Made by a program: the position numbers and the translations under genes
Origin: an uncultured archaeon
GTDB lineage: Archaea > Iainarchaeota > Iainarchaeia > Iainarchaeales > JAAZKV01
Reading direction: 5' to 3'
Length of the DNA stretch: 64,000 nucleotides
Assembly: GCA_964551375.1 (NCBI GenBank)
Contig: CAZKBG010000001.1
Coordinates: 757,150 to 821,149, forward strand
Notes under the pieces: model-generated
Told to the model about the DNA's origin: nothing
Seen by the model: only the letters and a program-made list of their open reading frames with translations
Databases searched by the model: none
Shown here: positions 1-61,969 of the stretch, piece after piece
How the letters are laid out: each line of letters starts with the position of its first letter
Numbering within the stretch: the first letter of the stretch is position 1

Positions 1-578
1 CAGCAGGCGGAGCAGCGTTCATAATCGGTCCTGACAAAGAATCAGTAGCAATACTTGAACACACTTGCTCTTACACTACCGACACTCCTGATTTTTGGAG
101 ACGCTCAATGCAGCCATACCCATCACACGCAGGAAGATTCACAGGAGAGCCAGCCTACTTTAAGCACGTAACAGCAGCAACAAAAATGATACTTGAAAAA
201 AGCAAACTTGCGATGAAGGATTTTAAGTTTGTAGTATTTCACATGCCAAATGGAAAATTTCCTCTAAGAGTAGCAAAAACTTTTGGAGTGACAAAAGAGC
301 AACTTGAAGCAGGACTTGTGGTAACAAAAATAGGAAACACATACTCTGGCTCATCAATTTTGGGACTTGCCAGCGTGCTTGACATAGCAAAACCAAATGA
401 CAGAATTTTAGTAACTTCATACGGAAGCGGAAGCGGAAGCGACGCATTTATTTTCAAAGTAACAGACAAAATTACAAAAGCCCAAGGAAAAGCAAGAAAA
501 GTAAATGACTACATAGCGCGAAAAGAATATTTAGGATACGCGCAGTATCTAAAACACATGGAGGGCATACACGGTTAG
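1..578 (+). CDS. HMG-CoA synthase, C-terminal portion; gene begins upstream of the window
   Basis: The frame is open from position 3 with no stop. Contains the TPDFWRR motif and a SYGSGSGSDAF C-terminal region typical of archaeal HMGCS. Sits beside thiolase and DUF35, which form a known complex in archaea. Confidence 0.7.
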   Translation, partial: AGGAAFIIGPDKESVAILEHTCSYTTDTPDFWRRSMQPYPSHAGRFTGEPAYFKHVTAATKMILEKSKLAMKDFKFVVFHMPNGKFPLRVAKTFGVTKEQLEAGLVVTKIGNTYSGSSILGLASVLDIAKPNDRILVTSYGSGSGSDAFIFKVTDKITKAQGKARKVNDYIARKEYLGYAQYLKHMEGIHG

Positions 579-587
579 TGATTAGAT

Positions 588-1352
588 ATGGCTAAACGCT
601 ACATGACTCCGCACAAACTTGGCTTTGCAAAAGCTGCTGCAGAAGCAGTGGTAAAGCAGAGAAAAAAAAGCCGAAAAGAAATTGCAATGGCTCCATGGAC
701 AACAATAAAAGGCGCAGGAATAGAACTTTGGAGAGAAAGATTCTGGTTCCACCCGTTTCGCTCAATCGGAATAATAGTAAGCATTCCGCAAAAAATGCTT
801 TTAAAAATCGCATCAGAAAGAGCAAAAGTAAGAATGGCAAATGTAAATGTTGCCGCAATGGTCAGGGAAGAAATGGAAAGAGACGCTGGATTCAAAGCAA
901 CAGTGCAAACTGCAGTAAAAGACCACAAATGGCTTTATGTTGACTGGAAAGGAAGAATTGTGCAGACAATAAATTCTCCAATAAAAGAAAGCGAGGAAAA
1001 TTTTGTTCTCAAAGACAGAGGACATGCCAAAAGGGCGAATATGAAAGAATTTAGCGGAAAAGCAACAATAAAATATGTTAACGCAAGTACACAGCCGAGA
1101 AAATCAAGCGACCCTGCAGGGCCAAGAGCAATAATGATAGGAACAAGAGGAAAAAATTTACACGTATCAAATTTGAGAGCAGGAAAAGAAGAAGTGATAG
1201 TAAGAACAGCTATAGAAAGCCAAACAATGACGCCGTTTGCGTCAAGACCAAACACAGTATTATTAAAATTAAAAATGAAAGACGGAAGCACAAAGAAATT
1301 TGTTGTTAATAAAGATGAAGCAAAAGGAGTAGTAAGAAGATTGGGGTTGTGA
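588..1352 (+). CDS. hypothetical basic protein (254 aa), no recognisable family
   Basis: ATG at 588 preceded by gtgat. Longest ORF in the region. Located between HMGCS and thiolase. K/R-rich. All six frames are fairly open here, so coding status is uncertain. Confidence 0.4.
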   Translation: MAKRYMTPHKLGFAKAAAEAVVKQRKKSRKEIAMAPWTTIKGAGIELWRERFWFHPFRSIGIIVSIPQKMLLKIASERAKVRMANVNVAAMVREEMERDAGFKATVQTAVKDHKWLYVDWKGRIVQTINSPIKESEENFVLKDRGHAKRANMKEFSGKATIKYVNASTQPRKSSDPAGPRAIMIGTRGKNLHVSNLRAGKEEVIVRTAIESQTMTPFASRPNTVLLKLKMKDGSTKKFVVNKDEAKGVVRRLGL

Positions 1353-1411
1353 GTAAAATAAAATTAGTTTTTATTTTATAGATTAAGTAAATTTATTTTA
1401 AAGGTGTACAT

Positions 1412-2566
1412 ATGAAAGTAGGCGTAATAGGAATTGGAATAACAAAGTTCGGAGAAATTTGGGACGCAAGCTTAAGAGAACTCTTGCTTGACGCACAGCT
1501 TCGCTCATTAAATGATGCAAAAATAGAAGCAAAACAAATAGACGCAATGTACACCGGAAACATGGCAGCAGGACAACTAAGCGGACAACTGCATGTAGGC
1601 GCAATGGCGACAGAAAATCTAAATTTAGAAATACCTTCAATAAGAGTAGAAGCAGCATGCGCAAGCGGCTCGCTCGCACTAAGACAAGGACTTCACGCAA
1701 TAGAAGCAGGCGAAGCGGATATTGTAATGGTGAATGGAGTAGAAAAAATGACTGATGTTTCAACAGAACAAGTAACAACAGCATTAATGGGCGCAGGCGA
1801 CGAAGAGCTTGAAGGATTCAACGGACTAACATTTCCAGGATTATATGCATTGCTTGCAAACGCATATATGCACGAATACGGATTAACAAGAGAAGTATTA
1901 GCAGAAGTGTCAGTAAAAAACCACTTCCACGGCGCAAGAAACTCATACGCGCAATTTCAAAATGAAATAACAGTAGACACCGTAATGGACTCAACAATGG
2001 TAGCAGATCCTTTAACTTTATTTGACTGCTCTCCAATAACAGACGGCGCGGCAAGCGTAATACTCGCAAGCGAAAAAACAGCTAAAAAAATGGGCGCAGA
2101 AGTATATGTAACAGGCTCAGGACTCGCAACTGACACATTATCACTTGCAAGAAGAAAATCACTCCTTGAAATAAAAGCAGGAAAATTAGCCGCTGGCTTT
2201 GCATACAAGCAAGCTGGAATCACCGCAAAGGATATTGATTTTGCAGAAGTGCATGATTGTTTTTCAATAGCAGAAATTTACGCAGTGGAAGCCCTGGGAC
2301 TTGCAAAGCAGGGACAAGGATGGAAATTATACAAAGAAAGACAAACTTACTGCGATGCAGACAAGCCGGTAAATACAAGCGGCGGACTAAAAGCATGCGG
2401 ACACCCAGTTGCAGCAACTGGAATAAAACAGGCAGTGGAAGCAGTAATGCAATTACGCGGACAAGGCGCAAAAAGACAAGTAAAGGACGCTGAAATTGGA
2501 GTAACACACAATGTGGGCGGAAGCGGAGCAACTGCAGCAGTGCACGTATTTAGAAGAATGAAATAA
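1412..2566 (+). CDS. acetoacetyl-CoA thiolase (archaeal thiolase)
   Basis: Starts MKVGVIGIGITKFGE. Has active-site Cys context (EAACASG) and a C-terminal GGSGA motif typical of thiolases. AGGTG RBS and TATA-like box lie upstream at 1353-1411. Confidence 0.85.
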   Translation: MKVGVIGIGITKFGEIWDASLRELLLDAQLRSLNDAKIEAKQIDAMYTGNMAAGQLSGQLHVGAMATENLNLEIPSIRVEAACASGSLALRQGLHAIEAGEADIVMVNGVEKMTDVSTEQVTTALMGAGDEELEGFNGLTFPGLYALLANAYMHEYGLTREVLAEVSVKNHFHGARNSYAQFQNEITVDTVMDSTMVADPLTLFDCSPITDGAASVILASEKTAKKMGAEVYVTGSGLATDTLSLARRKSLLEIKAGKLAAGFAYKQAGITAKDIDFAEVHDCFSIAEIYAVEALGLAKQGQGWKLYKERQTYCDADKPVNTSGGLKACGHPVAATGIKQAVEAVMQLRGQGAKRQVKDAEIGVTHNVGGSGATAAVHVFRRMK

Positions 2567-2589
2567 AAAAGCAAAAATAGGAATTATAT

Positions 2590-2832
2590 TTGAGCGTGAT
2601 AAAAATGGCGGAAAAGAAAGGATTTTTTGGAAAACTATTGGGGGGAAAATCAAATTCAGGATTTGGATCAACAGATTCAGAACCAGTAAGAAGAATTGAA
2701 CCCAGAATAGTTGAAGAAAGAAGAGAAGAAGACGAACCAGGACAGCTTTGGAAAAAAGCCAAGAAATGGAGAGAAGACCAGGCACTCAACGAGCCTCTTG
2801 TAAAAAGAAACCAGTACAAGAAAAAATACTGA
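2590..2832 (+). CDS. hypothetical small charged protein (80 aa)
   Basis: ORF between thiolase and DUF35. Highly charged and low complexity. Confidence 0.3.
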   Translation: MSVIKMAEKKGFFGKLLGGKSNSGFGSTDSEPVRRIEPRIVEERREEDEPGQLWKKAKKWREDQALNEPLVKRNQYKKKY

Positions 2833-2875
2833 CACAACAAATTAGGGAAGTTTTATTGGAAAATTAGCGGATGGT

Positions 2876-3280
2876 GTGAAAATGTTTAGAGAAAGCCCGA
2901 TAATAAGGTGGAGACACTACAACGACAGATATAAACTGAAAGGAAGCAAATGCACAAAATGCGGAGCAACCTACTTTGAAAAAAAAGGAGTATGCACCTG
3001 CAGCAACATGGACTTTATTGAAATGGACTTCTCAGGAATTGGAAAAATTGCAGCATTCACACAAATCCACGGCGGGCCGGAAGCATTTGAAAACAAAACA
3101 CCATACTGCGTGGCAGTAATAGACTTAGCTGAAGGCGCAAGAATTGAAGCGCAGGTAGTAGACGCAAAGTACGAAAATCTAAAAATAGGAATGGAAGTTG
3201 AAGCGCAATTTAGAAAATTCTATGCAAGCGGCGAAAAAGGAGTAATCCACTACGGAACAAAATTTGTTCCAAAATTCTAA
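2876..3280 (+). CDS. DUF35 OB-fold/Zn-ribbon protein (scaffold of the archaeal thiolase-HMGCS complex)
   Basis: CxxC...CxC zinc ribbon (CTKCGATYF...CTCS) followed by an OB-fold-like C-terminus. Canonical neighbour of thiolase and HMGCS. Confidence 0.8.
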   Translation: MKMFRESPIIRWRHYNDRYKLKGSKCTKCGATYFEKKGVCTCSNMDFIEMDFSGIGKIAAFTQIHGGPEAFENKTPYCVAVIDLAEGARIEAQVVDAKYENLKIGMEVEAQFRKFYASGEKGVIHYGTKFVPKF

Positions 3281-3325
3281 CGCTCTAACCTGTGCCGATT
3301 TTGGCAAAAAGAGAGCGGGTAAATT

Positions 3326-4093
3326 ATGAAAATGCCAAAAAAGAATGAGCTGTTAGTTCTGCCTGAAGACCACGCGGCTCATTTTGCAAAAAAATGGTTA
3401 AGATTTGCAAGAATGAAAGGAAAACCGGTTGCAAAAAGAAAACTTGCTGAATTAAAAGAAAAAATGAAACGCTTCGCAAGACTTGCTCCCATGGTTGAAA
3501 AAGCTTACTGGGAAGGATACAGAAAACAGAATCCAACAAGATACCAAGCAATCGCATTATCAGAATCCGTTCTTGAAAAAGTACTGGCAGGCGAATCAAA
3601 AGCAAAAATAAAACAAGCACATTACTTGATTGCGCATAATTTTTCACTGCAAACCTTTCGAGAAAAATACGGAGAAAGCTTAATTGCACCCGCAGAAAGA
3701 ATTGCAACTATAACATTTAAGATGCAGGAAGAATTACCAGGATATCTAAAAAGAAACTGGAACAAACTCAGCGAGTTTGAGCAAAAACAATTGAAAGCCA
3801 CAAAAGAAGCTCTTCCAGGAATAAATCTAAGCCTTCTTGCGCACGATATTGAAGGAAAGGCGATGTCGATTCCGGTTCATTTACTGACTCAAGCGGAAAG
3901 AGTTCACAAAGAAGCAATCACAAGCTTAATTGGCGAATCAAGATTTAATAAATTTAACAAAACAATGAACAAAGCAGTGGATATGCTGATAGAAAAAGAA
4001 CATGAAGAGGAAAAAAAGAGAGGTTTAGCAAAAGGCGGAGCAAGAAAATTAACAAAAAAAGAAATTGAAGCAAGAAGAAAAAGAATTGTTTAA
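3326..4093 (+). CDS. hypothetical Lys-rich protein (255 aa)
   Basis: ORF with ATG preceded by gagcggg. No family recognised. Embedded in the mevalonate operon. Confidence 0.4.
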   Translation: MKMPKKNELLVLPEDHAAHFAKKWLRFARMKGKPVAKRKLAELKEKMKRFARLAPMVEKAYWEGYRKQNPTRYQAIALSESVLEKVLAGESKAKIKQAHYLIAHNFSLQTFREKYGESLIAPAERIATITFKMQEELPGYLKRNWNKLSEFEQKQLKATKEALPGINLSLLAHDIEGKAMSIPVHLLTQAERVHKEAITSLIGESRFNKFNKTMNKAVDMLIEKEHEEEKKRGLAKGGARKLTKKEIEARRKRIV

Positions 4094-4112
4094 ATTTACG
4101 GATGGTTATAAC

Positions 4113-5057
4113 ATGCAAGAAGCAAAAGGAAGAGGATACGGAAAAGTAATACTGTTTGGAGAATACTTTTCTGTTTACGGCACTCCGGGAGCGGCGGCAG
4201 GCATTGACAAATATGTTGAAGTAAAAGCAACCAAACACAAAGACGCAGAAGATGTCATAATTGACGACCAGTTGTTCTTTAAAGAAAAAGTTTCGCTAAA
4301 AGAAAATCCCGAACACATAAAAATCAAAGGGCTTAAGGCAATGTTTAAAGATGAAATAGAAATTTCACTAAAAGGATTCAAATTAACTTACAGCGGGAAC
4401 CTTCCCCACGGAGAAGGAATGGGATTTGGCTCGGCGCTTGGAGCCGCAACAGCAAGAGCAGTAAGCTCAATGTTTGACATGAAACTAAAAGATGAAAAAA
4501 TAAACGAGCTTGCGCAAAAATGGGACTCTGCGACAAACGGAACTCCCAGCGAAATTGACGACGCATGCGCAACATACGACTCGCTTGTATGGTTTGAGAA
4601 AAACAAAGAAGACGACAAAGTCAAGGCAAGGCCGTTTAAATCAGGCGGAGCGCTCTTTTTAATAATCGGCGAAACAGGAATAAAAAAACAAACACCAGAA
4701 GCTCTTGCGGAAGTAAAGAAGTGGAAAGAAGAAAACAAATCTGAATTTGAAAAAATACTTTCAGAAGCAAAAAAACTTTCAGGAAAAGCAAAGCTTGCGC
4801 TAAAATTCGGCGAAATGGCTGAAATAGGAAAACTAATGAATCAAAATCAGGAACTTTTAAAAAAAATAGGAGCATCTCTTCCTGAACAGGAGGCATTGAT
4901 AAAAATTGCGCTTGAAAAAGGAGCATACGGCGCAAAAATTACCGGAACAGGATCTGGAAATATAATTGCGCTTTGCGAAAACGAGGCAATGCAGGACAAA
5001 ATAATTGCGACAATCGAACAGAGAGGGTACAAAGCAATTAAAACAAGAATTCATTAA
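4113..5057 (+). CDS. mvk: GHMP kinase, mevalonate kinase family (paralog 1)
   Basis: GKVILFGEYFSVYG N-terminal motif. GHMP phosphate-binding loop PHGEGMGFGSALGAA. C-terminal KITGTGSGN. The in-frame ATG at 4113 avoids overlap with the upstream ORF; the ORF track starts it at 4065. Confidence 0.8.
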   Translation: MQEAKGRGYGKVILFGEYFSVYGTPGAAAGIDKYVEVKATKHKDAEDVIIDDQLFFKEKVSLKENPEHIKIKGLKAMFKDEIEISLKGFKLTYSGNLPHGEGMGFGSALGAATARAVSSMFDMKLKDEKINELAQKWDSATNGTPSEIDDACATYDSLVWFEKNKEDDKVKARPFKSGGALFLIIGETGIKKQTPEALAEVKKWKEENKSEFEKILSEAKKLSGKAKLALKFGEMAEIGKLMNQNQELLKKIGASLPEQEALIKIALEKGAYGAKITGTGSGNIIALCENEAMQDKIIATIEQRGYKAIKTRIH

Positions 5058-5085
5058 ATTAGGGCAAATATTTGGGGATGAAAAA

Positions 5086-6015
5086 ATGGGAAGCGGAAAA
5101 GGATACGGAAAAACAATACTGTTTGGAGAACACTTTGTAGTATACGGGCTTGAAGGAATACCAGCTGCGTTAGGACAAATCACCACTGCCGAAGTTAAAA
5201 AAATCGCAGGCGAAAATGGGTACACTTTAGCAGACAACCGCCCCGCAACTCCGGGATATAAGGAAGAAAAAGCTGGTGAATACAGCGCGCTGATTAATAG
5301 AATACTTGAATTCATGAAAGTTAAAGGAAAAATCCAGATTACGCTCGGCGGAGATTTATTCTGCGCTTCAGGAATGGGCGCAAGCGCAGCATGCGCAGTG
5401 GCAATTGCCCGCGCAATAAACGACGAGTATAAACTTAACTGGACAGATGAACAAATAAACAACGCAGCGTTTGAAGGGGAAACTGCAGGAAGCGGAACAC
5501 CAAGCGGAATAGATAACACAGTGGCAACATACGGCGGGTTTATAGTTTTCGCAAAAAATCTTGAAGGCGGAGCAAACCGAATTGATCTTTTGAAAGTGAA
5601 AAAGCCTATTGAAATAGTGCTGGCTAATTCAGGATTAACCGCTCTTACAAAAGAAGTAGTAGGAGATGTGAAAAAATTAAAAGAAGCGGAGCCCGCAAAA
5701 GTTGATTTGATATTTTCAGAATATGAAAAGCTTGCAAACGAAGCAAAAAAAGCAATTTCAACAGGCGATTTGAAAAAAGTCGGGGATCTCATGAATAAAA
5801 ATCACGAATTGTTGCAGAGATTAACCGTTTCATGCAAAGAACTTGATGAAATTACAAGCACTGCAAGAAATGCAGGGGCATTTGGGGCAAAACTCACAGG
5901 GACAGGACGAGGTGGAATGGTTATTGCATTAACTCCCGGAAAAGAACTGCAGGAAAAAGTTGCAAAAGCAATTTCAGCAAAAGGGTATAAGACAACAAAA
6001 ACAATGATAGGGTAA
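5086..6015 (+). CDS. GHMP kinase, mevalonate kinase family (paralog 2)
   Basis: GKTILFGEHFVVYG motif. Loop SGMGASAACAVA. C-terminal KLTGTGRGG. About 30% identical to the upstream paralog. ATG at 5086; the ORF track starts at 5005, overlapping the previous gene. Confidence 0.8.
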   Translation: MGSGKGYGKTILFGEHFVVYGLEGIPAALGQITTAEVKKIAGENGYTLADNRPATPGYKEEKAGEYSALINRILEFMKVKGKIQITLGGDLFCASGMGASAACAVAIARAINDEYKLNWTDEQINNAAFEGETAGSGTPSGIDNTVATYGGFIVFAKNLEGGANRIDLLKVKKPIEIVLANSGLTALTKEVVGDVKKLKEAEPAKVDLIFSEYEKLANEAKKAISTGDLKKVGDLMNKNHELLQRLTVSCKELDEITSTARNAGAFGAKLTGTGRGGMVIALTPGKELQEKVAKAISAKGYKTTKTMIG

Positions 6016-6092
6016 TTTTTTGAAAATTTGCAGAACTTAGGAAGTAATTAAATCAAAAGTATTTGTAATAAGATATTATTGGCTGTGAAAAA

Positions 6093-6656
6093 ATGGAAAA
6101 AAGAATAATTCTTGGAGTCAGCGGGGCATCAGGAGTAAATTATGCCCTTACTTTGCTAAAAGAATTGAAAAAAAGCGGAGTAGAGGTTCACTTAATCATG
6201 AGCGAGTGGGCTGAAGTGGTATTGGCTCTTGAAACAGGAAAAAAAGTAGCTGAAATGAAAAAACTTGCATTCAAAACATACTCAAACAAAGATATGGCAG
6301 CAAGCGTATCCTCAAGCTCATTTTTAGTGGATGGAATGATAGTGCTTCCAGCTTCAGTAAAAACAGTATCTGAAATAGTTCATGCGCACACTTCAAACTT
6401 AATCACACGATGCGCGGATAATATGCTGAAAACAAAAAAAACACTTGTGATTGGATTTAGAGAAACCCCAGTCAGTCCACCGACACTTGAAAATCTCTAT
6501 AAACTTTCGCTCTACGGGGCAATTATATTTCCATTAAGTCCGGGGTTTTACAATAAGCCAAAAACAATTAAAGACATAGAGGGATTTATTGTAGGCAAAG
6601 CAATGGATTTATTAGGTGTTAGAAATAATACTTATAAAAGATGGGAGAAGGCATAA
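6093..6656 (+). CDS. ubiX: UbiX-family flavin prenyltransferase (supplies prFMN to the UbiD-like decarboxylase)
   Basis: GVSGASG dinucleotide motif. MIVLPASVKTVSEIVHAHTSNLITRCADNMLK matches the UbiX/Pad1 signature region. Confidence 0.85.
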   Translation: MEKRIILGVSGASGVNYALTLLKELKKSGVEVHLIMSEWAEVVLALETGKKVAEMKKLAFKTYSNKDMAASVSSSSFLVDGMIVLPASVKTVSEIVHAHTSNLITRCADNMLKTKKTLVIGFRETPVSPPTLENLYKLSLYGAIIFPLSPGFYNKPKTIKDIEGFIVGKAMDLLGVRNNTYKRWEKA

Positions 6657-6683
6657 AAGCGCTTAAAACAAAAAGGTGATTAT

Positions 6684-7958
6684 ATGACGTTTAGGGAATT
6701 TGTAAAAAAAACTGATTTAACGGTGAGAAAACCAGTTTCAAAGAATTTAGAAGCAAGCGGCATAATTCACTCAGCGGGAGACAAAAGCATTCTCTTTGAA
6801 AAAATAAAAGAATCAAAATATAAAATTGCAGCAAATGTATTTGCAAACAAGCAAAAAGTTGCGGCATACCTTGGATGCGGAGTAAAAGATTTAGTTCCAG
6901 TGATGACTAAAGCTCTTCAAAACCCAACAAAACCAAAATTAGTCTCTAAAACCGACCACCAAGAACACCCTGTTGATTTAGACCTGCTTCCAATACTGAC
7001 TCATACAGAAAAAGACGGCGGAGCATATGTTTCAAGCGGAATGATAATTGTAAGCGACCCAGGCGTGGGGCAGAATGTGTGCTATCATAGAGGAATGGTT
7101 ATTTCAAAAAACAAATTAGCATTAAGAATACTTGAAAGAAACACAATGGAACTTTTGAAGAAAAACGGCGGAACATTAAAAGCAGCATACTGCGTAGGAA
7201 GCGGAGCAGAAGTATTAGTAGCTGCCGCAATGGCTCCAGCTCTTGGAGTAAACGAACTTGAAATAGCAAATTCAATGAAGCCAATTGAAGTAATGAAAGC
7301 AAAATTATTTGACGCGACACTTCCAGCGGACAGCGAATTTGTATTTGAAGGAACACTTACTTTAAACGAAAGACACAAAGAAGGGCCGTTTGTTGACTTG
7401 ACAGAAACAAGCGACATAATCAGAGAAGAGCCTGTATTCACAGTTGAAAAAGTTTATGCAAGACCAAACCCAATATGGCATGCGCTTCTTCCAGGCGGAT
7501 TTGAACACAAAATATTAATGGGGATGCCAAGAGAACCAACTGTGTTTGACGAAGTGGCAAAAGCAGGAATAGAAGTTATTGACGTGAGCGTAAATCCAGG
7601 CGGAAGCTCATGGTTCCACGTGATTGTAAAAATCAATAAAAAGAATGAAGACGACGGCAAACGCGCAATTGATGCCGCAATGAAAGGACACACTTCAGGA
7701 AAGCACTTTTTTGTAGTGGATAAAGACATTGATATCTATAATCCGCTTGAAGTAGAATGGGCAATGGCGACAAGATTCCAAGCAGACAAGAATTTGTACC
7801 TGTTCCCAAAGCAGAAAGGATCATCACTTGATGCAAGCGCGGACCAAATCACACGCGAAACATGCAAAGCTGGATTTGACTTGACAATGAGGCTTGATAA
7901 AGTAGGGAAAATGACAAGAACAGAATTCCCAAAGTACAATATAAAAGATTATTTGTAA
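6684..7958 (+). CDS. UbiD-family decarboxylase, probable trans-anhydromevalonate-5-phosphate decarboxylase
   Basis: UbiD-like length and architecture. Lies immediately downstream of ubiX and upstream of the AcnX pair, the gene context of the archaeal alternative mevalonate pathway. Confidence 0.75.
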   Translation: MTFREFVKKTDLTVRKPVSKNLEASGIIHSAGDKSILFEKIKESKYKIAANVFANKQKVAAYLGCGVKDLVPVMTKALQNPTKPKLVSKTDHQEHPVDLDLLPILTHTEKDGGAYVSSGMIIVSDPGVGQNVCYHRGMVISKNKLALRILERNTMELLKKNGGTLKAAYCVGSGAEVLVAAAMAPALGVNELEIANSMKPIEVMKAKLFDATLPADSEFVFEGTLTLNERHKEGPFVDLTETSDIIREEPVFTVEKVYARPNPIWHALLPGGFEHKILMGMPREPTVFDEVAKAGIEVIDVSVNPGGSSWFHVIVKINKKNEDDGKRAIDAAMKGHTSGKHFFVVDKDIDIYNPLEVEWAMATRFQADKNLYLFPKQKGSSLDASADQITRETCKAGFDLTMRLDKVGKMTRTEFPKYNIKDYL

Positions 7959-8020
7959 ATAAGTTAAGATATGAAGGTAATTGAATATAATAAGTTTAGT
8001 AACCAAAAGATTGTGATTTT

Positions 8021-9208
8021 ATGAAGCTAACAAAACAAGAAAAGGATATGCTGAACGGCAAATACGGAAACGCCGTAAAGAAAAGCATGGGAATACTTGT
8101 AGCGCTTGGAGAAATATACAACGCAAAAAAATTAATTGATGTGACAAGCGTGCAAATAGCTGGAGTAAGCTATGACAACCTTGGCGACGCAGGACTTGAA
8201 TTCTTGGAAGAACTTGCAAAAGACGGCAAAGTAAAAGTTCTTACTACTCTCAATCCTGCGGGAATGGACCTTGAAAATTATAAAGCACTTGGAATTAGCG
8301 AAGAGTTCGCAGTAAAACAAAGAAAAGTAATAGAAGCATTCTCTAAAATGGGAATACTTCCAACATGCACCTGCACTCCTTATTTAATTGGAAATAATCC
8401 TCATTTTGAACAACACATAGCGTGGAGCGAAAGCTCAGCTGTAGCATACGCAAATTCAGTAATAGGCGCTTACACAAACAGAGAAGGCGGACCAAGCGCG
8501 CTAGCAGCAGCATTAACAGGAAAAACTCCTCTTTACGGAATGCATTTGCCCGAAAGCAGAAAAGCGCAAGTAAAAGTAAAAGTAAAATGCAAAATCAAAG
8601 GAACTTGGGAATTTGGAGCGCTTGGAAAAGCAATCGGAGAAAAAGTAAAAGCAAAACCAGTTTTGATTACAGGAATAAAAGAAGCGACAGTAGATGAGCT
8701 AAAATCATTCTCAGCAAGCATAGCAACATACGGCGGAGCAGCGATATTTCATATAAAAGGAATAACGCCTGGAAAAACACCGACTCCAAAAGAAGAAATT
8801 GTAATTACTGAAGAAGACATTAAAAAAGCGGAAAAAGAAATGGACTCGGACTGCGAAGTTGATTTTGTAAGCGTAGGATGCCCTCATGCAAGCCTTGCAG
8901 AACTTGCAAAAATCGCAGAGCTTTTGAAAGGAAAAAAAGTTACAAAAGAATTCTGGATAACAACCGCCCGCCCGACAAAAAAAATAGCTGATGCTGCAGG
9001 ATATGCAAAAATAATTGAAGACGCAGGCGCAAAATTCGCCGCAGATACTTGCTGTGTTGTAGCTCCAATAAAAAACAGATTCAAATGCATGGCAACGGAC
9101 TCAGCAAAAGGATGCTACTATGCAGGCGCAAAAAATAATTTCAAAGTAAAAATTATGCCGATTGAAAGATTAATAGAAGAAGCATGCAAGCCAATCGGGC
9201 AAAAATGA
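8021..9208 (+). CDS. aconitase X family (DUF521) catalytic subunit, probable phosphomevalonate dehydratase large subunit
   Basis: AcnX-like sequence with the Cys cluster PTCTCTPY. Followed directly by a DUF126-like small subunit. Confidence 0.8.
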   Translation: MKLTKQEKDMLNGKYGNAVKKSMGILVALGEIYNAKKLIDVTSVQIAGVSYDNLGDAGLEFLEELAKDGKVKVLTTLNPAGMDLENYKALGISEEFAVKQRKVIEAFSKMGILPTCTCTPYLIGNNPHFEQHIAWSESSAVAYANSVIGAYTNREGGPSALAAALTGKTPLYGMHLPESRKAQVKVKVKCKIKGTWEFGALGKAIGEKVKAKPVLITGIKEATVDELKSFSASIATYGGAAIFHIKGITPGKTPTPKEEIVITEEDIKKAEKEMDSDCEVDFVSVGCPHASLAELAKIAELLKGKKVTKEFWITTARPTKKIADAAGYAKIIEDAGAKFAADTCCVVAPIKNRFKCMATDSAKGCYYAGAKNNFKVKIMPIERLIEEACKPIGQK

Positions 9209-9252
9209 AAAAAGCGGTAAATTGAGTAATGAAATGATATTTTGAAAAAAAT

Positions 9253-9654
9253 GTGGTGTTTATGACAGAACTAAAAGGAAGAAAAATATTTGGCGGCTCA
9301 ATCGAAGGAGAAGCGCTTGTAACAACACAAGGGATTTCATTCTTCGGCGGAGTAAATCCTGACAACGGCGTAGTGCAGGAAAAAGGACACGAACTTGAAG
9401 GGCAGAGCATATCAGGAAAAATACTTGTTCTCCCGCAGGGAAAAGGCTCAACAGTAGGAAGCTATGCGATTTACCGAATGAAAAAACAAGGAACTGCTCC
9501 AAAAGCGATTGTATTAAGCGAATGCGAAGCAATAGTTGCGGTAGGCGCGATAATTTCAGAAATCCCGTGCGTTGACAAGATTGATATTTCAAAAATAAAA
9601 ACAGGGCAAAAGCTGAAAGTAGACGGCGACAAAGGAATAGTTGAACTAAAATAG
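9253..9654 (+). CDS. aconitase X swivel-domain protein (DUF126), probable phosphomevalonate dehydratase small subunit
   Basis: GEALV...SFFGGVNP...GKILVLPQGKGSTVGSY pattern typical of DUF126. Likely true start is the ATG at 9262. Confidence 0.8.
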   Translation: MVFMTELKGRKIFGGSIEGEALVTTQGISFFGGVNPDNGVVQEKGHELEGQSISGKILVLPQGKGSTVGSYAIYRMKKQGTAPKAIVLSECEAIVAVGAIISEIPCVDKIDISKIKTGQKLKVDGDKGIVELK

Positions 9655-9738
9655 CAATATAGGTCTAAAAAATCGATATATTTTCTTATTCAAGATACTT
9701 TTAAATAAAGAAAAAGTGCTCATTTTGCAAGTGGTTTA

Positions 9739-10389
9739 ATGTTTGGCAGAAGAGGGCAGGGCACAATAGAATACCTTGTAATTATTGCAGTTGTGATAGT
9801 TTTAGCGCTTGTTGTTTCTTATTTTATGATGGGCTCGCTTGGCTCGGCTTCAGCAGCAGAAAAGGCGAGTCTTAAAGCAGCTTGGCAGTCAAAAGAAGTG
9901 GGAATTGCTGATTTTGCAGTTGATTCAAGCGGAAGCGGAAAAATCGCATTGATGAACAACTCTGGCGAATTTGTGAGAATAAAGAAAGTTTATGTTGAAG
10001 GAGTGCTTGTTTATGACGGAACGCTTTCACTTGGAAATTTTGACAAATATGTAGTGGGCTCTTTTGCAAGCAATGTCGCAGCGTGCAGTGCGGACAGAAG
10101 ATATAGAATAAGAATAGTTTACGAGGCTGAAAGCGGGCTTGAAGATGAAGTGAGCGGAGATTTGTACCCAGAATGCATGGCAAGCGCATCACAAATAAAC
10201 ACTTTGCTTTTAAGCATCCCAAATATTGACTCAAACATAAATATCGACTTGAATGTATCAACAGGACTTTTAGGACTTGCAAACTCACAGGCAGTGAATA
10301 CAAGAAACCTTGACAATATTTCACAAGGCTCATCCCCAGACTCAAATGTAAAATATGACACTAATGTTGTGACATTAAATACAGTGTGA
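9739..10389 (+). CDS. pilin-like protein with class III (type IV prepilin-like) signal peptide
   Basis: N-terminus MFGRRG|QGTIEYLVIIAVVIVLALV. A short basic leader is followed by Q+1 and E+5, then a hydrophobic helix (DUF361-like archaeal pilin motif). The stop lies 4 nt before the start of the first giant gene. Confidence 0.7.
   Translation: MFGRRGQGTIEYLVIIAVVIVLALVVSYFMMGSLGSASAAEKASLKAAWQSKEVGIADFAVDSSGSGKIALMNNSGEFVRIKKVYVEGVLVYDGTLSLGNFDKYVVGSFASNVAACSADRRYRIRIVYEAESGLEDEVSGDLYPECMASASQINTLLLSIPNIDSNINIDLNVSTGLLGLANSQAVNTRNLDNISQGSSPDSNVKYDTNVVTLNTV
9764..10184 (+). repeat. direct repeat copy A (5' two-thirds of pilin gene); about 88% identical to 30620-31044
   Basis: Visible long identical runs shared by the two copies, e.g. 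ttttatgatgggctcgcttggctcggcttcagcagcagaaaaggc and aactctggcgaatttgtgagaataaagaaagtttatgttga. Confidence 0.8.
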
Positions 10390-10393
10390 GTTT

Positions 10394-13300
10394 ATGGGTT
10401 ATTCTAAATTTTTATTGGCTTTTATATTTATTCTTTTTTTGACAAATGTTTTTTCAGTAGACATTTCCACATGCGCTGATTTATACAATATGGCTGAATC
10501 TTCAAGCTCATTTACCGTTACAACCAATATTGACTGCGCAGCATATACAGCCGCGGGAGATAAATTTGGAAACGCAATAAATTTTTACGGAACGCTTGAC
10601 GGAGGAAACTATACTATAAGCAATATTTATGTAAATGCTCCAGGGGCAGATTATGTCGGAGGAATATTTAGAACAGTAAACAGTGTCAGCAATTTAACTC
10701 TTCAAAATGTAAAAATATATGCAAGCAACAGAAGCTATGTCGGGGGGCTTGCGGGACAATCAAGCGGAACAATAACAAATGTCACAGTAAGAGACTCAAA
10801 TATTTTTGGAAACAACTTTGCAGGAATAGTTGTGGGAAACTCTTTAGGACAGGTGCTGAATTCGTCAGTTTATGATTCAAATATTTCCGCAAACCACGCA
10901 GTTGGAGGAATGGTCGGCAGAGTATATCATAACATGCTGAATCCAAGAGTAAGCAATGCGATAATCAACGGAGTTGGGGATGCTTCAAATGCATATGGAG
11001 TGGGGGGAGTTGTTGGAACAATAGACACAACAAATAGAAGAATAGATTTGAATGATTCAGTTGTGTCGCTTGGAAATTTATACGGAACATACTTTGTGGG
11101 CGGAGCAGTAGGGGTGGCAACATGCTATTACTGCTCAAATCCAGTAACAATGAACCGAATCACAGTTAATGCAAATCAAATAACCGGAAATCAATACGTG
11201 GGCGGGCTTGCCGGGCACTTTCCATTGCCAATAACAATAACCGATTCAAACGCCACAGTGACTCAAATTACAGGAGACCGAGCAAATTCAGGCTCAATAG
11301 GAGGGCTTGTAGGGTACGCAAATGTTGTGGGGAGCAATTTATCCTTCACAGGAAATATTTCAATAAATTCCTCAGGCAGCACAACAGGGTATATCGGCGG
11401 GCTTGTCGGAAGAATTGATTCAGGCTCAATAAGAAACGCAAAAGCAGATGTAAACATTGACACTACGCTTGGCTCGGTAACAATGGATAATGTCGGCGGA
11501 ATTTTGGGATTTGATAATTCAAATACAACAATTACCGACGCAAACGTAGTCTTTGGCGTAATAAAAGGAAAAAATTCTGTCGGCGGAATTGCAGGAAATA
11601 TTACAACTTCAATTGTTCGAACAAGAGTTACCGGAACAACACTTACCGGGGTAGGCGCTGATACTTATTATGGGACTGGCGGAGTTGCGGGAACTGCAAG
11701 AGCCGACAGCAGAAGAATTGATTTGAATGACTCAGTTGTTAACATTACTACTATTAACGGAACAAGATTTACTGGGGGAATAGTCGGAGTGGGGTGGTGT
11801 TATTACTGCTCTAATCCAACAAATGTTTTCAACTCTTCTTTTACAGGCTCTGCTTTGAACGGTTATCAGTTTGCTGGAGGAATCGCAGGATATCTACCAA
11901 GCGGAACATCCCTAATTTCAAACTCAACGGCAAGAATTCCTCAAATGACTTTTTCAGGCTCTGACCCTTACTATTCAGGCGGAGTGGGAGGAGCAGTAAT
12001 TAACATAACTAATTCAAATTTTATTGGAAATATTGACGTAAGCAAATCTTCCAACACAGGAAGCGGATACTTTGGGGGAATTGCAGGACAGGCAAATTCA
12101 ATCTCAGACTCATGGGCTGACACAAATCTTAACTTAATGCTCGGAACATATGCGAGTAATTATGTCGGCGGGCTCGTTGGAAATTACACAGGAAATATTA
12201 CTTCCAGCTATGCAAAAGTCCACCATATTTGGGAACCAAGCACTTCAAACGGGACAAACATAGGGGGGCTTGCAGGGCAGGGGGCTACTGCGGGCGGATA
12301 CATAATAGACTCAAATGTAACTTTTAATGATATTAACGGAGGAAACAGCGTAGGAGGGCTTGCAGGATATACTCAAGGAAATATTTTGCGAACAAAAGTA
12401 ATTGGAAACACTTTAAGCGGAACAGGCGCCGATTCATATTATGGTGTCGGCGGGCTTGTCGGAACAATAAGAGCCGACAGCGGAAGAGTTGACCTAAATT
12501 ATGCAAATGTAAATATTACTACAATTAACGGAACAAGATTTACGGGCGGAATTGTGGGAGCTGGATGGTGTTATTACTGCTCATACACAACAAATGTATT
12601 TAACTCAACTTTCACAGGCTCTGCTTTGAACGGTTATCAGTTTGCTGGAGGAATCGCAGGATGGCTTCCAAGCGGCGCATCAAAAATATATGATTCAAAT
12701 GCGCGAATTACAAGAATTTATCTTTCAGGTTCCAACCCATATTATTCAGGAGGAGTTGGCGGACAGGCATATGATATAAACAATGCAAATTTTATAGGAC
12801 TAATTGAGGTCAACAAATCTTCCAACTCAGGAGACGGATACTTTGGAGGACTTGCGGGACACGCAAACAGTATTTCATATTCCTGGGCTGACACAAACCT
12901 TAACCTTCATCTTGGAGCATATGCGAGTAATTATGTCGGCGGGCTCGTTGGAAATTATACTGGAAACATTGACCACAGCTGGGTTAGGGTTCATCATATT
13001 TTTGAGCCTGCAACAAGCAATGGCGGAAGAGTGGGAGGACTTGCAGGGCAGGGGGCTACTGCGGGCGGATATATTTCTGATTCGAACGCCGTGTTTACTG
13101 ATATTAACGGTGGAAATGATGTTGGAGGGCTTGTTGGTTATGCGCAGGGAAATATTTTAAGAAATAAAGTTACTGGAACAAATGTTAGAGGGACTGGTTA
13201 TTTAGACGGTTATAGTTTGTATGGTGTTGGCGGATTAGTTGGAACAATGCAGGCAGGAGCGCGCTCCGATGTAAATGATAATGTTGTTGATTTGAATTCG

Positions 13301-16399: not shown

Positions 16400-16420
16400 A
16401 AGGCTTTTTTAGCCTTTTGT
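16400..16420 (+). terminator. hairpin plus T-run after giant gene 1
   Basis: aaggct ttttt agcctt followed by ttgtt. Confidence 0.4.
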
Positions 16421-16443
16421 TATATAAAATAAGTAGTGAAAAA

Positions 16444-17256
16444 ATGGAAAATTTAATTGTAATAAAACTTGGCGGTTCGTCAATTACAAAAAAAGCCGAA
16501 GGAAAATTTGAAATGAACGAAACTGTTTTAAAAAGCGCAGCAAAACAAATTTCCCAAGCTCTCAAATCCGATAATTCTCTTAAATTAATTCTTGTGTGCG
16601 GAGTGGGACCGTTTGGGCACACAAATGTAGTAAAATACGATTTGAATAATGGGATAAAAACAAGCGCGCAAGAAAAAGGAGTGGAAGTGACAATTAAGGA
16701 CTGCAATTTTGTTGCTGAATCAGTTATGGACGCGCTGGAAAACGAAGGACTGAAAACTGAACACGTTCCAGGATATCTTGTGTGCAAACAAGACGGAAGA
16801 AAAGTAATTTCATTTGACGCAGAGCCTTATACTAATGCAGTTGAGAAAGGAATAATTCCAGTAACAACAGGAATAATGGTAAAAGACAAGTCGCTTAAAT
16901 GGAGCGTGATGAGCGGAGATGCTGCAATTGCGCAAATTACAATGAGACTCATTCCAAAAAAAGTAGTGATAGGAACAGATGTTGACGGAATATTCACAGG
17001 CGACCCAAAAGAAGACAAAAAAGCAAAACTAATTGAAGAAATTTCAAATACAAATCTTGAAAGCGTACTAAAAAAAGCGACAAACTCAAAAGCAGTGGAT
17101 GTAACCGGCGGAATGAAAGGAAAACTTGAAAAATTAGCAGAAACACTCAACGGAACAGAATGCCAGATTTTCAATCTTTTCACTGACGGAAATTTAAAAA
17201 AAGCGCTTCTTGGAGAAAAAATGACTTCCACCAAGCTTAAAATTTGGATTAATTAG
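16444..17256 (+). CDS. ipk: isopentenyl phosphate kinase (amino-acid kinase family)
   Basis: N-terminal IVIKLGGSSITKK, then a GVGPFGH motif. Amino-acid-kinase fold hallmarks. ATG at 16444; the ORF track starts at 16417 inside the upstream hairpin. Confidence 0.8.
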   Translation: MENLIVIKLGGSSITKKAEGKFEMNETVLKSAAKQISQALKSDNSLKLILVCGVGPFGHTNVVKYDLNNGIKTSAQEKGVEVTIKDCNFVAESVMDALENEGLKTEHVPGYLVCKQDGRKVISFDAEPYTNAVEKGIIPVTTGIMVKDKSLKWSVMSGDAAIAQITMRLIPKKVVIGTDVDGIFTGDPKEDKKAKLIEEISNTNLESVLKKATNSKAVDVTGGMKGKLEKLAETLNGTECQIFNLFTDGNLKKALLGEKMTSTKLKIWIN

Positions 17257-30595: not shown

Positions 30596-31279
30596 ATGCA
30601 TGCAAAAAAAAGGGGACAGGGAACAATTGAATACCTTGTTATAATAGCGGTTGTAATTGTGCTTGCATTAGTAACATCATATTTTATGATGGGCTCGCTT
30701 GGCTCGGCTTCAGCAGCAGAAAAGGCTTCGTTAAAAACAGCATGGCAGACAAAAGAAGTGGGAATTGCCGATTTTGCAGTTGATTCAGACGGAGCGGGAA
30801 AAATTGCCATAATGAATAACTCTGGCGAATTTGTGAGAATAAAGAAAGTTTATGTTGACGGAGTGCTTGTTTATGACGGAACGCTTTCACTTGGAAATTT
30901 TGATAGATATGTAGTGGGTTCTTTTGCTGAAAATGTGACTTCTTGCAGCGCGGACAGAAGATACAGTATAAGAATAATTTACGAGGCTGAAAGCGGGCTT
31001 GAAGATGAAGTGAGCGGAGACTTGTACGCAGAATGCATGGCAAGATTGAATGAAGGCGCGCTAAGATTCTTGCAGTTAACCGACGCGAATTTGAGTCTTG
31101 GGGACACAATCAACGTTTCAGCAGCAACAGGATACTTTACTTTAATTGACGCCAACTTTGTGAACTCAAGAAGCATAACTTATGGAAATGAAGGCTTTGG
31201 AGAGTACGGCGGCGTTGATTTAAACACAACAAGAAACACCGATAACAACTATATAGAACTTGACGTACAAGCTGAATAA
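30596..31279 (+). CDS. pilin-like protein with class III signal peptide; paralog of 9739-10389
   Basis: MHAKKRG|QGTIEYLVIIAVVIVLALV. The first roughly 145 aa are nearly identical to the upstream pilin-like protein; the C-terminus has diverged. Confidence 0.7.
   Translation: MHAKKRGQGTIEYLVIIAVVIVLALVTSYFMMGSLGSASAAEKASLKTAWQTKEVGIADFAVDSDGAGKIAIMNNSGEFVRIKKVYVDGVLVYDGTLSLGNFDRYVVGSFAENVTSCSADRRYSIRIIYEAESGLEDEVSGDLYAECMARLNEGALRFLQLTDANLSLGDTINVSAATGYFTLIDANFVNSRSITYGNEGFGEYGGVDLNTTRNTDNNYIELDVQAE
30620..31044 (+). repeat. direct repeat copy B (pairs with 9764-10184)
   Basis: See copy A. The two copies bracket about 20.8 kb. Confidence 0.8.
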
Positions 31280-61789: not shown

Positions 61790-61969
61790 AATTTTTTTGA
61801 TTTTGTTTAACCGCAGGCAAGTTTTTAGCCAAAGTATAGAATCCGAACAGGGAACTAATTAATGCAAGGTAAGGGGTGTATTAGTGGAAGAGAGTGCTGG
61901 GAAGTGAGACAGCCAGTATTTTTATAACTTTTGACTCACAAAATCAATTGGTTAGGGGACGGGGAAAAA
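61790..61969. other. candidate replication-origin region between divergent sepF and orc1 (speculative)
   Basis: AT-rich runs (aatttttttgattttgttt, cagtatttttataacttttg). A degenerate mini-ORB-like tattAGTGGAAGag adjacent to a G-string (aaggggtg), and a second G-string ggttaggggacgggg. Immediately upstream of orc1/cdc6. Confidence 0.25.

Follow-up and report, generated by a model that had tools for sequence, protein, structure and literature searches.

Three conserved orphan genes interleaved in an otherwise ordinary archaeal mevalonate gene cluster

Three conserved genes outside known families, here called ORF-A, ORF-B and ORF-C, are interleaved in an otherwise ordinary archaeal mevalonate gene cluster. 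They are true protein-coding genes under purifying selection, and the stretch that holds them, positions 1-9654 of the window (the whole 64,000 nucleotides analysed), is the core of a complete cluster of the usual archaeal type. Their position among the genes leads us tentatively to see in them strongly basic proteins without catalytic activity that are accessory to the module formed by HMG-CoA synthase (HMGCS), thiolase and a DUF35 protein.

The mevalonate gene cluster

The source contig is 946 kb long, and the host is a small-genome, Iainarchaeota-like (DPANN) archaeon. Positions 1-9654 carry 12 ORFs of the cluster, all on the + strand, and a further pathway gene lies downstream:

1..578 (3-578), +, HMGCS, C-terminal 191 codons (NF003274, 283 bits, cut-off 244)
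588..1352, +, ORF-A, 254 aa, pI 10.6, orphan family
1412..2566, +, archaeal acetoacetyl-CoA thiolase, ACAT (NF004720, 527 bits)
2605..2832, +, ORF-B, 75 aa, pI 9.7, orphan small protein (probable start)
2882..3280, +, DUF35/ChsH2 protein, zinc ribbon and OB fold (PF01796, E 2e-17; PF12172, E 2e-6; probable start)
3326..4093, +, ORF-C, 255 aa, pI 10.0, orphan helical protein
4113..5057, +, mevalonate kinase paralogue 1, MVK1, GHMP (TIGR00549, 184 bits, cut-off 163; probable start)
5086..6015, +, mevalonate kinase paralogue 2, MVK2, GHMP (TIGR00549, 221 bits, cut-off 163; probable start)
6093..6656, +, UbiX flavin prenyltransferase (NF004685, 207 bits, cut-off 188)
6684..7958, +, UbiD-family decarboxylase (TIGR00148, 293 bits, cut-off 245)
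8021..9208, +, AcnX large subunit (PF04412, E 1e-147)
9253..9654, +, AcnX small (swivel) subunit (PF01989, E 2e-35)
16417..17256, +, isopentenyl phosphate kinase, IPK (PF00696, E 1e-37)

The gene order and all nine enzyme assignments of the sequence-only reading agree with the family profile matches, and its coordinates hold apart from a few starts. DUF35 probably begins at ATG 2882 and not at 2876, MVK1 at ATG 4113 and MVK2 at ATG 5086; for ORF-B, TTG 2590 is probably too early and ATG 2605 is favoured, because a GTGAT Shine-Dalgarno-like motif precedes it and the orthologues start at matching MAEKKGF/MGI residues. The intergenic gaps are all 84 nt or less, with GTGAT/GGTG motifs 5' of the starts. 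The thiolase carries the motifs CAS (83), HDCF (281) and GHP (330), and DUF35, which serves the HMGCS/thiolase complex as its scaffold subunit, has cysteines 24, 27, 38 and 40 in a CxxC...CxC arrangement. The two kinases are 34% identical to each other, and an MVK1-type gene is the sole MVK in several relatives with the UbiD/AcnX route.

UbiX provides the prenyl-FMN cofactor of the UbiD enzyme, and from its context the UbiD-family gene would encode the anhydromevalonate phosphate decarboxylase. AcnX large, in which Cys118, Cys287 and Cys344 are invariant among seven orthologues, is the putative phosphomevalonate dehydratase subunit. The family matches agree with the proposal that, in the trans-anhydromevalonate-phosphate route, the UbiX/UbiD pair supplies the decarboxylase and the AcnX pair the dehydratase. 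To call this route alternative, as was done at first, is a misnomer, since MVK, AcnX, UbiD/UbiX and IPK make up the standard archaeal mevalonate pathway, the most widespread one in archaea, most DPANN included (PMC11052028).

The reported lack of an HMG-CoA reductase (HMGR) comes only from where the window was cut: HMGR is missing from positions 1-9654 because the window begins inside HMGCS. Another contig, L051, matches window positions 1-1944 with 0 mismatches and continues upstream; it holds the full-length HMGCS of 346 aa (8936-9976, identical over the overlap), HMGR about 1.5 kb 5' of the HMGCS start and, among the genes 5' of the window, also a GltD-like oxidoreductase, with GGPP synthase and type-2 IDI (IDI2) lying further upstream than HMGR. 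The final pathway step, IPK, went unmentioned in the sequence-only reading; its gene lies 6.8 kb past the operon, with a pilin gene and a gene for a 1994-aa surface protein between, and is 78% identical to an AA_kinase gene that directly adjoins AcnX small in the relative L002. Genes are present for each enzymatic step from acetyl-CoA to IPP, DMAPP and GGPP, and ORF-A, -B and -C are therefore not required as missing enzymes.

Three genuine genes

The three ORFs had been described as basic or Lys-rich, of no nameable family and possibly lineage-specific, which their pI values and the searches bear out. They form three families unrelated to one another, without a match in Pfam or NCBIfam (E<=0.1 in both), PADLOC, PHROGs or PDB sequences, and a family profile search found no further copy of them in the window or in 50 loci. 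In the POR and GrpE-DnaK-DnaJ operons of the window, no family-less ORF of at least 50 aa lies between the genes.

For the window as a whole, chance alone predicts about 7e-5 open runs of 254-255 codons, and ORF-A and ORF-C are therefore not accidents of composition. Of 75-codon runs it predicts about 37, so ORF-B requires other evidence, which exists in its codon score and its conservation. The codon log-odds of the three ORFs resemble those of known genes, being +0.37 to +0.38 in frame (+0.38 for ORF-B) and -0.55 to -1.09 out of frame. Against the closest relative, L001, dN/dS is 0.14 for ORF-A, 0.19 for ORF-B and 0.09 for ORF-C, and for ORF-B it ranges over 0.19-0.28. The sequence-only reading had itself raised the possibility of unconserved ORFs or of known unrelated families; instead, the slots are kept in relatives and no family was matched. 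The idea that the ORFs arose by chance in purine-rich DNA, to which the strongly purine-rich + strand (AT skew 0.2-0.4) and the frequency of 75-codon runs lend something, is effectively refuted by run length, frame-specific codon usage and the conservation of the proteins, whose dN/dS lies far under 1 in several lineages.

Distribution and features of the three families

All three slots hold orthologues in L001 and in L002-L005. In L001/L002 the subunits of the HMGCS/thiolase/DUF35 module show 88-96% conservation relative to the window. The three ORFs diverge 3-10 times faster than the enzymes in amino acids; towards the more distant L002 they are 39-55% identical, against 88-95% for the flanking enzymes. 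What fills the slots varies among relatives: some have ORF-A, others small two-TM ORFs, further basic ORFs or no gene at all.

ORF-A belongs to a divergent family of 165-296 aa with a net charge of +14 to +35 (thiolase -9), a basic N-terminal helix and a conserved hairpin motif, WLYVDWKGRIVQT. Its C-terminal domain (residues about 160-254) is predicted to be PH-like by a structure model built on three sequences with an overall pLDDT of 51, and the short members in L010 and L013 are without this domain. The gene is absent from L009, L017 and L024, small two-TM ORFs take its place in L016, L020 and L031, and in L011 it has been relocated to after DUF35.

Seventeen lineages (window, L001, L002 type, L009-L017, L020, L024, L033, L036) carry an ORF-B orthologue of 61-75 aa in the slot between thiolase and DUF35. 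The orthologues share the N-terminus G-F/I-x-x-K-x-x-G-K and the C-terminal motif AKKWRE-x4-EPLVKR; their N-terminal helix is only moderately amphipathic, and in the ORF-B of the window this falls short of significance. Every sampled relative with a thiolase at least 80% identical to the window's, compared at full length, has ORF-B in this slot, and so do most of those at 79%, L023 being without it, while thiolase and DUF35 directly abut in most more distant relatives.

ORF-C has a conserved core at about 75-230, in which H104, R143, H194 and G203 are invariant in the family; for the two histidines and the arginine this holds, fully or nearly, among 14 sequences with a mutual identity of only about 20%. 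Its net charge is +4 to +25 (thiolase again -9), and the basic N- and C-terminal extensions are confined to the window's lineage. The fold resembles weakly HEPN and DinB-type metal-binding four-helix bundles, with scores of the kind that any up-down helical bundle would reach; one family member has a marginal DUF1993 match (E 0.048), and Foldseek gave no match for ORF-C. An exhaustive, context-blind search placed ORF-C-like genes just after DUF35 in four of six cases with readable surroundings (L040/41, L042, L046, L047), once with a small ORF between. These operons belong to a remote archaeal clade, with thiolase 53-54% and DUF35 38-42% identical to those of the window, and the lower pathway differs in one of them. 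When the same clade was sampled without bias from DUF35 as seed, MVK directly followed DUF35 in six loci, and an ORF-C-like gene came after it in only two (L052, L062). At least four unrelated kinds of gene occur behind DUF35 in this clade: ORF-C-like, a basic ORF of 80-98 aa, DUF6206 and a 450-aa methyltransferase-like protein. The distribution is patchy, as ORF-C was not found in most Iainarchaeota-like loci and two ORF-C-like proteins (P0012, P0015) lie outside a mevalonate context.

Possible roles

The lack of a match to any enzyme family and the strong positive charge suggest a non-catalytic, adaptor-like character. The three proteins would be co-transcribed and co-translated with the HMGCS/thiolase/DUF35 module, and may serve as its accessories or adaptors in assembly, localisation (e.g. 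to the membrane as the site of product use) or flux control. As guesses, ORF-A could be an adaptor with its predicted PH-like domain, ORF-B a short peptide that binds a partner and ORF-C a helical partner of DUF35. They are dispensable in principle, because the core subunits are so well conserved and the complex of other archaea, as far as it is summarised in PMC12960953, works without such partners.

A serious rival, possible although we hold it to be less likely, is that they are hitchhikers, fast-evolving lineage-specific genes without a role in isoprenoid synthesis. They would have been inserted where a well-expressed operon has permissive gaps, and would persist because their removal, or a break in the operon, is costly. 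The varying slots, the many gene kinds after DUF35 in the remote clade and the patchy occurrence of ORF-C all fit this, and rapid evolution, such as that of ORF-A at 39% identity while thiolase is at 91%, is also expected of unconstrained hitchhikers. However, the dN/dS values of 0.09-0.19 mean real constraint, ORF-B has been kept in one exact slot while the adjoining slots changed, the relocated ORF-A is still within the module, and ORF-C-like genes adjoin DUF35 in two clades, far above chance for a random gene.

A regulatory role, in which at least one of the basic proteins would bind nucleic acid and control the operon at the level of transcription or translation, is unlikely. Their pI of 9.2-10.6, the Lys/Arg-rich tails, especially the extensions of ORF-C, and their being encoded within the operon they would control speak for it, but the whole proteome is basic here (enzymes at pI 8.4-9.6), no HTH, RHH, winged-helix or other DNA-binding family was detected, the HEPN motif Rx4-6H is not conserved, and three unrelated regulators between three subunit genes would be unusual.

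More doubtful still is a hidden enzyme, with ORF-C as catalyst or ligand binder for a CoA thioester or pathway intermediate and H104, R143 and H194, together with E196 at a conserved acidic (D/E) position, as its candidate site. Two histidines and an arginine kept at such low identity, the repeated proximity to DUF35 and the weak DinB-type and DUF1993 matches would agree with it; each known step already has its gene, though, and the family is missing from most related operons, which presumably function.

Comparison with known systems

The PH-like superfold (PH, PTB, FERM-F3, GRAM, TFIIH p62) includes adaptors, but ORF-A has no sequence similarity to any PH family, Pfam bacterial PH included, and its likeness comes from the three-sequence model of a domain that its short relatives do not have. 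ORF-C differs from HEPN systems also in that no partner nucleotidyltransferase gene accompanies it, and PADLOC was negative.

The archaeal trans-anhydromevalonate phosphate pathway was first described in Aeropyrum pernix (PMC10040528; PMC11052028). The present cluster shares with it MVK, both AcnX subunits with the three invariant cysteines, UbiD, UbiX, IPK, the upper pathway, IDI2 and GGPP synthase, and departs from it in its two MVK paralogues, in the separation of IPK by the pilin and giant surface-protein genes, and in the orphan ORFs of the upper module. With the HMGCS/thiolase/DUF35 complex (a 2018 study cited in PMC12960953) it has in common three very conserved subunit genes, the thiolase motifs CxS, GHx and HDxF, and a DUF35 protein with zinc ribbon and OB fold. 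That source's summary of the complex includes no partners like ORF-A, -B or -C, whereas here an extra conserved gene stands between each pair of subunit genes, ORF-A and ORF-B respectively, and ORF-C follows DUF35.

A complete archaeal mevalonate pathway

All twelve open reading frames of positions 1-9654 lie on the + strand at the coordinates that the sequence-only reading had given them, and profile searches agree with its gene order and with the nine enzyme families that it named. The enzymes, and the genes that follow them, are:

1-578, + strand: HMG-CoA synthase (HMGCS), C-terminal 191 codons, the gene being cut by the start of the window; NF003274, 283 bits against a cut-off of 244
1412-2566, + strand: archaeal thiolase; NF004720, 527 bits
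2882-3280, + strand: DUF35/ChsH2 protein with zinc ribbon (PF12172) and OB fold (PF01796)
4113-5057 and 5086-6015, + strand: two GHMP kinases, both exceeding the TIGR00549 mevalonate-kinase (MVK) cut-off
+ strand: UbiX, its gene adjoining UbiD; NF004685, 207 bits, above cut-off
+ strand: UbiD-family decarboxylase; TIGR00148, 293 bits, above cut-off
+ strand: AcnX large subunit; PF04412, E 1e-147
+ strand: AcnX small (swivel) subunit; PF01989, E 2e-35
9739-10389: pilin gene with class-III signal, between the AcnX small subunit and isopentenyl phosphate kinase (IPK)
10394-16378: 1994-aa ORF with GLUG motifs, between the pilin gene and IPK
16417-17256: IPK; PF00696
L051 6130-7410: HMG-CoA reductase (HMGR), on an overlapping contig; PF00368

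The route of MVK, AcnX, UbiD/UbiX and IPK, as predicted from these genes, is the ordinary archaeal mevalonate pathway. Of the archaeal types it is reportedly the most widespread, most DPANN included (PMC11052028; PMC10040528), and to call it "alternative", as the sequence-only reading did, is misleading. The phosphomevalonate dehydratase of this pathway consists of a large and a small AcnX subunit, with three conserved cysteines for a [4Fe-4S] cluster (PMC10040528). Cys118, Cys287 and Cys344 of AcnX are invariant among seven orthologues and form the putative [4Fe-4S] set, and the UbiD-family enzyme would act on anhydromevalonate phosphate, a specificity suggested by its gene context. Neither GHMP protein passes the models for PMK or MDD, in about 73 kb seen of a genome with a 946-kb main contig.

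The absence of HMGR, which had been pointed out as a feature of the cluster, is an effect of the window edge. A search beyond the cluster found the gene on L051, a contig from the same sample that is identical to window positions 1-1944 with 0 mismatches, window position 1 being position 9399 of L051. The upstream order there is GGPP synthase, type-2 IDI, a Big_7 protein, a GltD-like Fer4_20/Pyr_redox_2 protein and HMGR, followed by a ZIP transporter on the other strand, a NikR_C protein and the full HMGCS of 346 aa. The window IPK is 78% identical to the L002 gene that lies directly 3' of the AcnX small subunit. A gene for every step of the pathway is thus present, and the three extra ORFs are not needed as gap fillers. 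The pathway itself is no novelty: complete as it stands, it is the route one would expect in an archaeon.

The gene directly 5' of HMGR encodes a GltD/SudA-like protein (Fer4_20 and Pyr_redox_2) in three divergent lineages, at L051 4737-6086 (some 3.3-4.7 kb before the window begins), L002 1609-2958 and L046 1210-2493, and L040 has a shorter Pyr_redox_2 gene there. This oxidoreductase may be a dedicated reductant supply for HMGR.

The archaeal markers of the window are class-III-signal pilins, Cdc6/Orc1, a Hel308-type helicase and a DTD2-type deacylase. The host seems to be a small-genome, Iainarchaeota-like (DPANN) archaeon. Scans of the window for tRNA and Rfam families gave no match.

Three genuine orphan genes

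Three ORFs stand between and after the genes of HMGCS, thiolase and DUF35, as had been described from the sequence:

588-1352, + strand: ORF-A, 254 aa
2605-2832, + strand: ORF-B, 75 aa (start previously placed at 2590)
3326-4093, + strand: ORF-C, 255 aa

In a codon model trained on 17 other genes, the in-frame scores of the three are +0.37 to +0.38 bits per codon, those of the other frames -0.55 to -1.09, and known genes show the same pattern. At the composition of the window, an open run of 254-255 codons is expected about 7e-5 times, and one of 75 codons about 37 times, so that ORF-B requires evidence beyond its length. Such evidence comes from orthologues of all three, found in the same slots in L001, a 12.7-kb MAG contig from the closest relative, and in a second lineage (L002-L005). 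The comparison shows that the ORFs are constrained, with low dN/dS, yet evolve much faster than their neighbours; over all the enzymes dN/dS against L001 is 0.03-0.14.

Constraint and divergence of the three ORFs and neighbouring enzymes (gene; dN/dS against L001; amino acid identity with L001; with the more distant L002)
ORF-A; 0.14; 82%; 39%
ORF-B; 0.19; 69%; 55%
ORF-C; 0.09; 73%; 52%
Thiolase; 0.04; 96%; 91%
HMGCS; 0.04; 94%; 95%
DUF35; 0.07; 93%; 88%

The intergenic gaps are tight (9-84 nt), and Shine-Dalgarno-like motifs, GTGAT or GGTG, lie 5' of ORF-A and ORF-B as they do 5' of the enzyme genes; this motif and the orthologues place the start of ORF-B at the ATG at 2605. ORF-A, ORF-B and ORF-C are genuine orphan genes, conserved in position, constrained and fast-evolving, and that they should be chance open frames is hardly credible.

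No family could be named for them from the sequence, and the databases bear this out. Neither Pfam nor NCBIfam gave a match to any of the three at E<=0.1, Pfam searches with each protein in the three family alignments and PDB sequence profiles gave no consistent match, and the PADLOC and PHROGs models matched none of them. The three families are mutually unrelated. ORF-A and ORF-C, despite their equal length, are not paralogues (BLASTP E 5.5; hhalign of the family profiles, probability 0.05%), and a viral origin of these two was rejected, the viral contigs of IMG/VR holding no relatives of either. The basic character ascribed to the ORFs extends to the whole families, all strongly basic with pI ranges of 10.1-10.6 (A), 9.2-9.8 (B) and 9.3-10.5 (C); the thiolase has 5.6. 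The family profiles found no further copies in the window or in the first 50 loci; their yield from 33 later loci was two ORF-C-like genes, with none resembling ORF-A or ORF-B.

ORF-B and ORF-A in related genomes

A thiolase-seeded scan with one genome per species gave 31 loci, which were mapped by BLAST and the three family profiles. Conservation of position in relatives, proposed earlier as a check on the ORFs, holds for all three in L001 and in L002-L005. In the wider set ORF-B keeps to one slot, and the distribution of ORF-A and ORF-C is patchy.

ORF-B lies between thiolase and DUF35 in every locus with a thiolase at least 80% identical to that of the window, full length. Where the thiolase is at 79% it is present in most loci and missing in L023 (79%). 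Most of the more distant Iainarchaeota-like loci, and those of Woesearchaeota, Hadarchaeum and bacteria, have thiolase directly next to DUF35 or something else in the gap. The orthologues measure 61-75 aa, with an N-terminus resembling MGIxDKxKxxFGKK, a C-terminal motif AKKWRE-x4-EPLVKR and the invariant residues R30, A52, R56, E57, P64, K67 and R68; a short helix, an acidic linker and the conserved basic C-terminal motif probably make up the protein. An N-terminal membrane-targeting helix was considered and rejected: the hydrophobic moment is 0.45-0.73 in most orthologues, but shuffle-like in most, and the window copy has no such signal at its N-terminus. The amphipathicity is only moderate, and we keep a possible membrane helix as a weak hint.

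The ORF-A family is very divergent, 165-296 aa long and, outside the immediate relatives of the window, 13-37% identical, the best-conserved element being a hairpin motif h-h-x-V-D/N-x-K-G-x-I. It occupies the gap between HMGCS and thiolase in ten lineages, lies 3' of DUF35 in L011 and is absent from L009, L017 and L024. In three loci small hydrophobic ORFs of 66-92 aa, probably with two transmembrane helices, stand in its place in that gap (L016 5726-6004, L020 5804-6004, L031 5741-6004). Pfam searches of ten ORF-A members gave no match at E<=0.1 to PH, bacterial-PH or any other families; six unrelated single-member matches stood at E 0.11-0.2.

ORF-C next to DUF35

Sequence searches with ORF-C found it in close relatives of the window only (five of 5.8 billion clusters). 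The ORF-C profile, run exhaustively with HMMER against 1.84 billion representatives, added nine distant relatives of 179-194 aa (E 8.5e-10 to 6.6e-4), which align to the core of ORF-C at about residues 53-229. The ORF-C-like gene lies directly 3' of DUF35, or with one small ORF between, in four of the six readable contexts (L040/41, L042, L046 and L047). These are mevalonate operons of a remote archaeal clade, with thiolases 53-54% and DUF35 proteins 38-42% identical to those of the window, and one of them has a different lower pathway with MDD-like genes. The other two relatives, P0012 and P0015, are located outside this setting; P0012 is recorded as a hypothetical protein of a Diapherotrites/Iainarchaeum archaeon. 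ORF-C-like genes are recurrently associated with DUF35 in two remote clades.

This picture is tempered by a metagenome sample of the remote clade seeded with DUF35, hence unbiased for ORF-C, which has an ORF-C-like gene 3' of DUF35 in two loci and MVK directly 3' in six, the slot in the others being filled by a basic ORF of 80-98 aa, a DUF6206 protein or a methyltransferase-like protein of 450 aa. A metagenome scan with four ORF-C-like sequences found nothing.

Downstream of DUF35, the remote clade has more such unannotated genes tied to the HMGCS/thiolase/DUF35 module. DUF6206 (about 275 aa), the methyltransferase-like protein (about 450 aa) or both are found at L042 1807-3991, L054 1628-3273, L059 1834-4040, L053 5484-7845 and L056 1450-2808, and a basic helical ORF of 77-98 aa at L046, L055, L064 and L065. 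Kinship of these small ORFs with ORF-B was rejected (hhalign probability 0.1%). In the relative L014 (7863-8684) a different family-less ORF, of 273 aa, stands after DUF35 in the slot that ORF-C occupies in the window.

A reading of ORF-C as a HEPN toxin was also rejected, on an absent motif, a weak fold score and the lack of a partner gene; in an alignment of 14 sequences the Rx4-6H motif is not conserved, and the invariant R143 and H194 lie 51 residues from each other.

Variation in the rest of the operon and window

IPK lies directly 3' of the AcnX small subunit in L002, L016, L021 and L031, so the surface-protein genes between them in the window have apparently been inserted into the operon; L001 has the same pilin and giant ORF after the AcnX small subunit. 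The giant ORF is the first of four in a row (1994, 1274, 1525 and 1543 aa), with GLUG motifs in the first two, and a second pilin-like gene (30596-31279) follows them, the region (10394-31279) taking up about 20 kb of a roughly 1-Mb genome.

The two MVK paralogues of the window are only 34% identical. Paralogue 1 occurs by itself in L016, L017, L018, L021, L024, L031, L033 and L036, paralogue 2 by itself in L014 and L019, and both in L011, L012 and L015. At L019 7640-10722, MVK paralogue 2, an MDD-like GHMP protein of 332 aa and another GHMP kinase replace UbiX/UbiD/AcnX, a gene set that places both pathway types within the Iainarchaeota-like group. Several relatives have a HAD-family hydrolase gene in the lower operon, either in the UbiD-AcnX gap or in the MVK2-UbiX gap (L002 13713-14516, L012 9843-10595, L014 11590-12393, L011 12660-13151), and the window has none.

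Bacterial MAGs labelled Babeliales and Pseudomonadota (among L028, L029, L030 and L038) have HMGR-HMGCS-thiolase-DUF35 clusters of archaeal type, in which the thiolase shares 51-55% identity with that of the window, and a Peribacteria MAG (L034) has only a thiolase (48%) and a DUF35-like gene. At the other end of the window, SepF (- strand, 61331-61789) and Cdc6/Orc1 (61931-63181) are head-to-head, 141 nt apart, and a replication origin could lie near this pair (61331-63181).

Possible accessory proteins or hitchhikers

What the sequence-only reading observed is confirmed, and its interpretation is supported in part. The three interleaved ORFs are a genuine feature; neither the name given to the route nor the "missing" HMGR deserves notice. 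An operon of known kind here has three additional orphan genes of conserved position, which are undescribed in the databases and literature searched. We tentatively favour, while giving it somewhat less than even odds, the reading that they encode non-catalytic accessories of the HMGCS/thiolase/DUF35 complex, a suggestion drawn from gene position. The three would be co-expressed with the genes of HMGCS, thiolase and DUF35, and might serve in assembly, localisation or flux control of the complex. A bolder version, which we regard as rather doubtful, sees them as unrecognised subunits or adaptors of an Iainarchaeota-like metabolon, in which ORF-C would be a DUF35 partner shared with the remote clade, ORF-B a short docking peptide and ORF-A a PH-like adaptor that would position the complex, e.g. 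at the membrane, or tune the flux into lipid synthesis in a lineage that, for all its small genome, continues to produce its lipids itself.

The main rival is that the three genes are hitchhikers, fixed in permissive gaps of the operon. The varying content of the slots among relatives and the patchy distribution of ORF-A and ORF-C speak for it, but ORF-B is strictly retained and ORF-C repeatedly adjoins DUF35, and we consider it possible though on the unlikely side. That one or more of the ORFs are regulators controlling the operon seems improbable to us, and a hidden enzyme among them more improbable still.

The novelty lies in three unannotated families that gene position links to the first committed module in the making of archaeal lipid precursors; ORF-C, one of the three, reappears beside DUF35 in a distant clade. 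Thermodynamic coupling by channelling has its textbook case in the HMGCS/thiolase/DUF35 complex, and lineage-specific partners, if true, would reveal how this complex is placed or controlled in the living cell. DPANN biology is concerned too: few members of that group have kept the full lipid-precursor pathway, and the Iainarchaeota-like archaea belong to these few. If the genes instead are hitchhikers, operon gaps would be nurseries for fast-evolving orphan genes in reduced genomes.

The HMGS/ACAT/DUF35 complex has its three subunit genes together, and its ACAT carries the motifs CxS, GHx and HDxF (PMC12960953). The thiolase of the window has CAS at residue 83, HDCF at 281 and GHP at 330, and its DUF35 protein has the four cysteines of a rubredoxin-like zinc ribbon, as CxxC...CxC, beside the OB fold. 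As in that complex, the window groups the genes of HMGCS (1-578), thiolase (1412-2566) and DUF35 (2882-3280).
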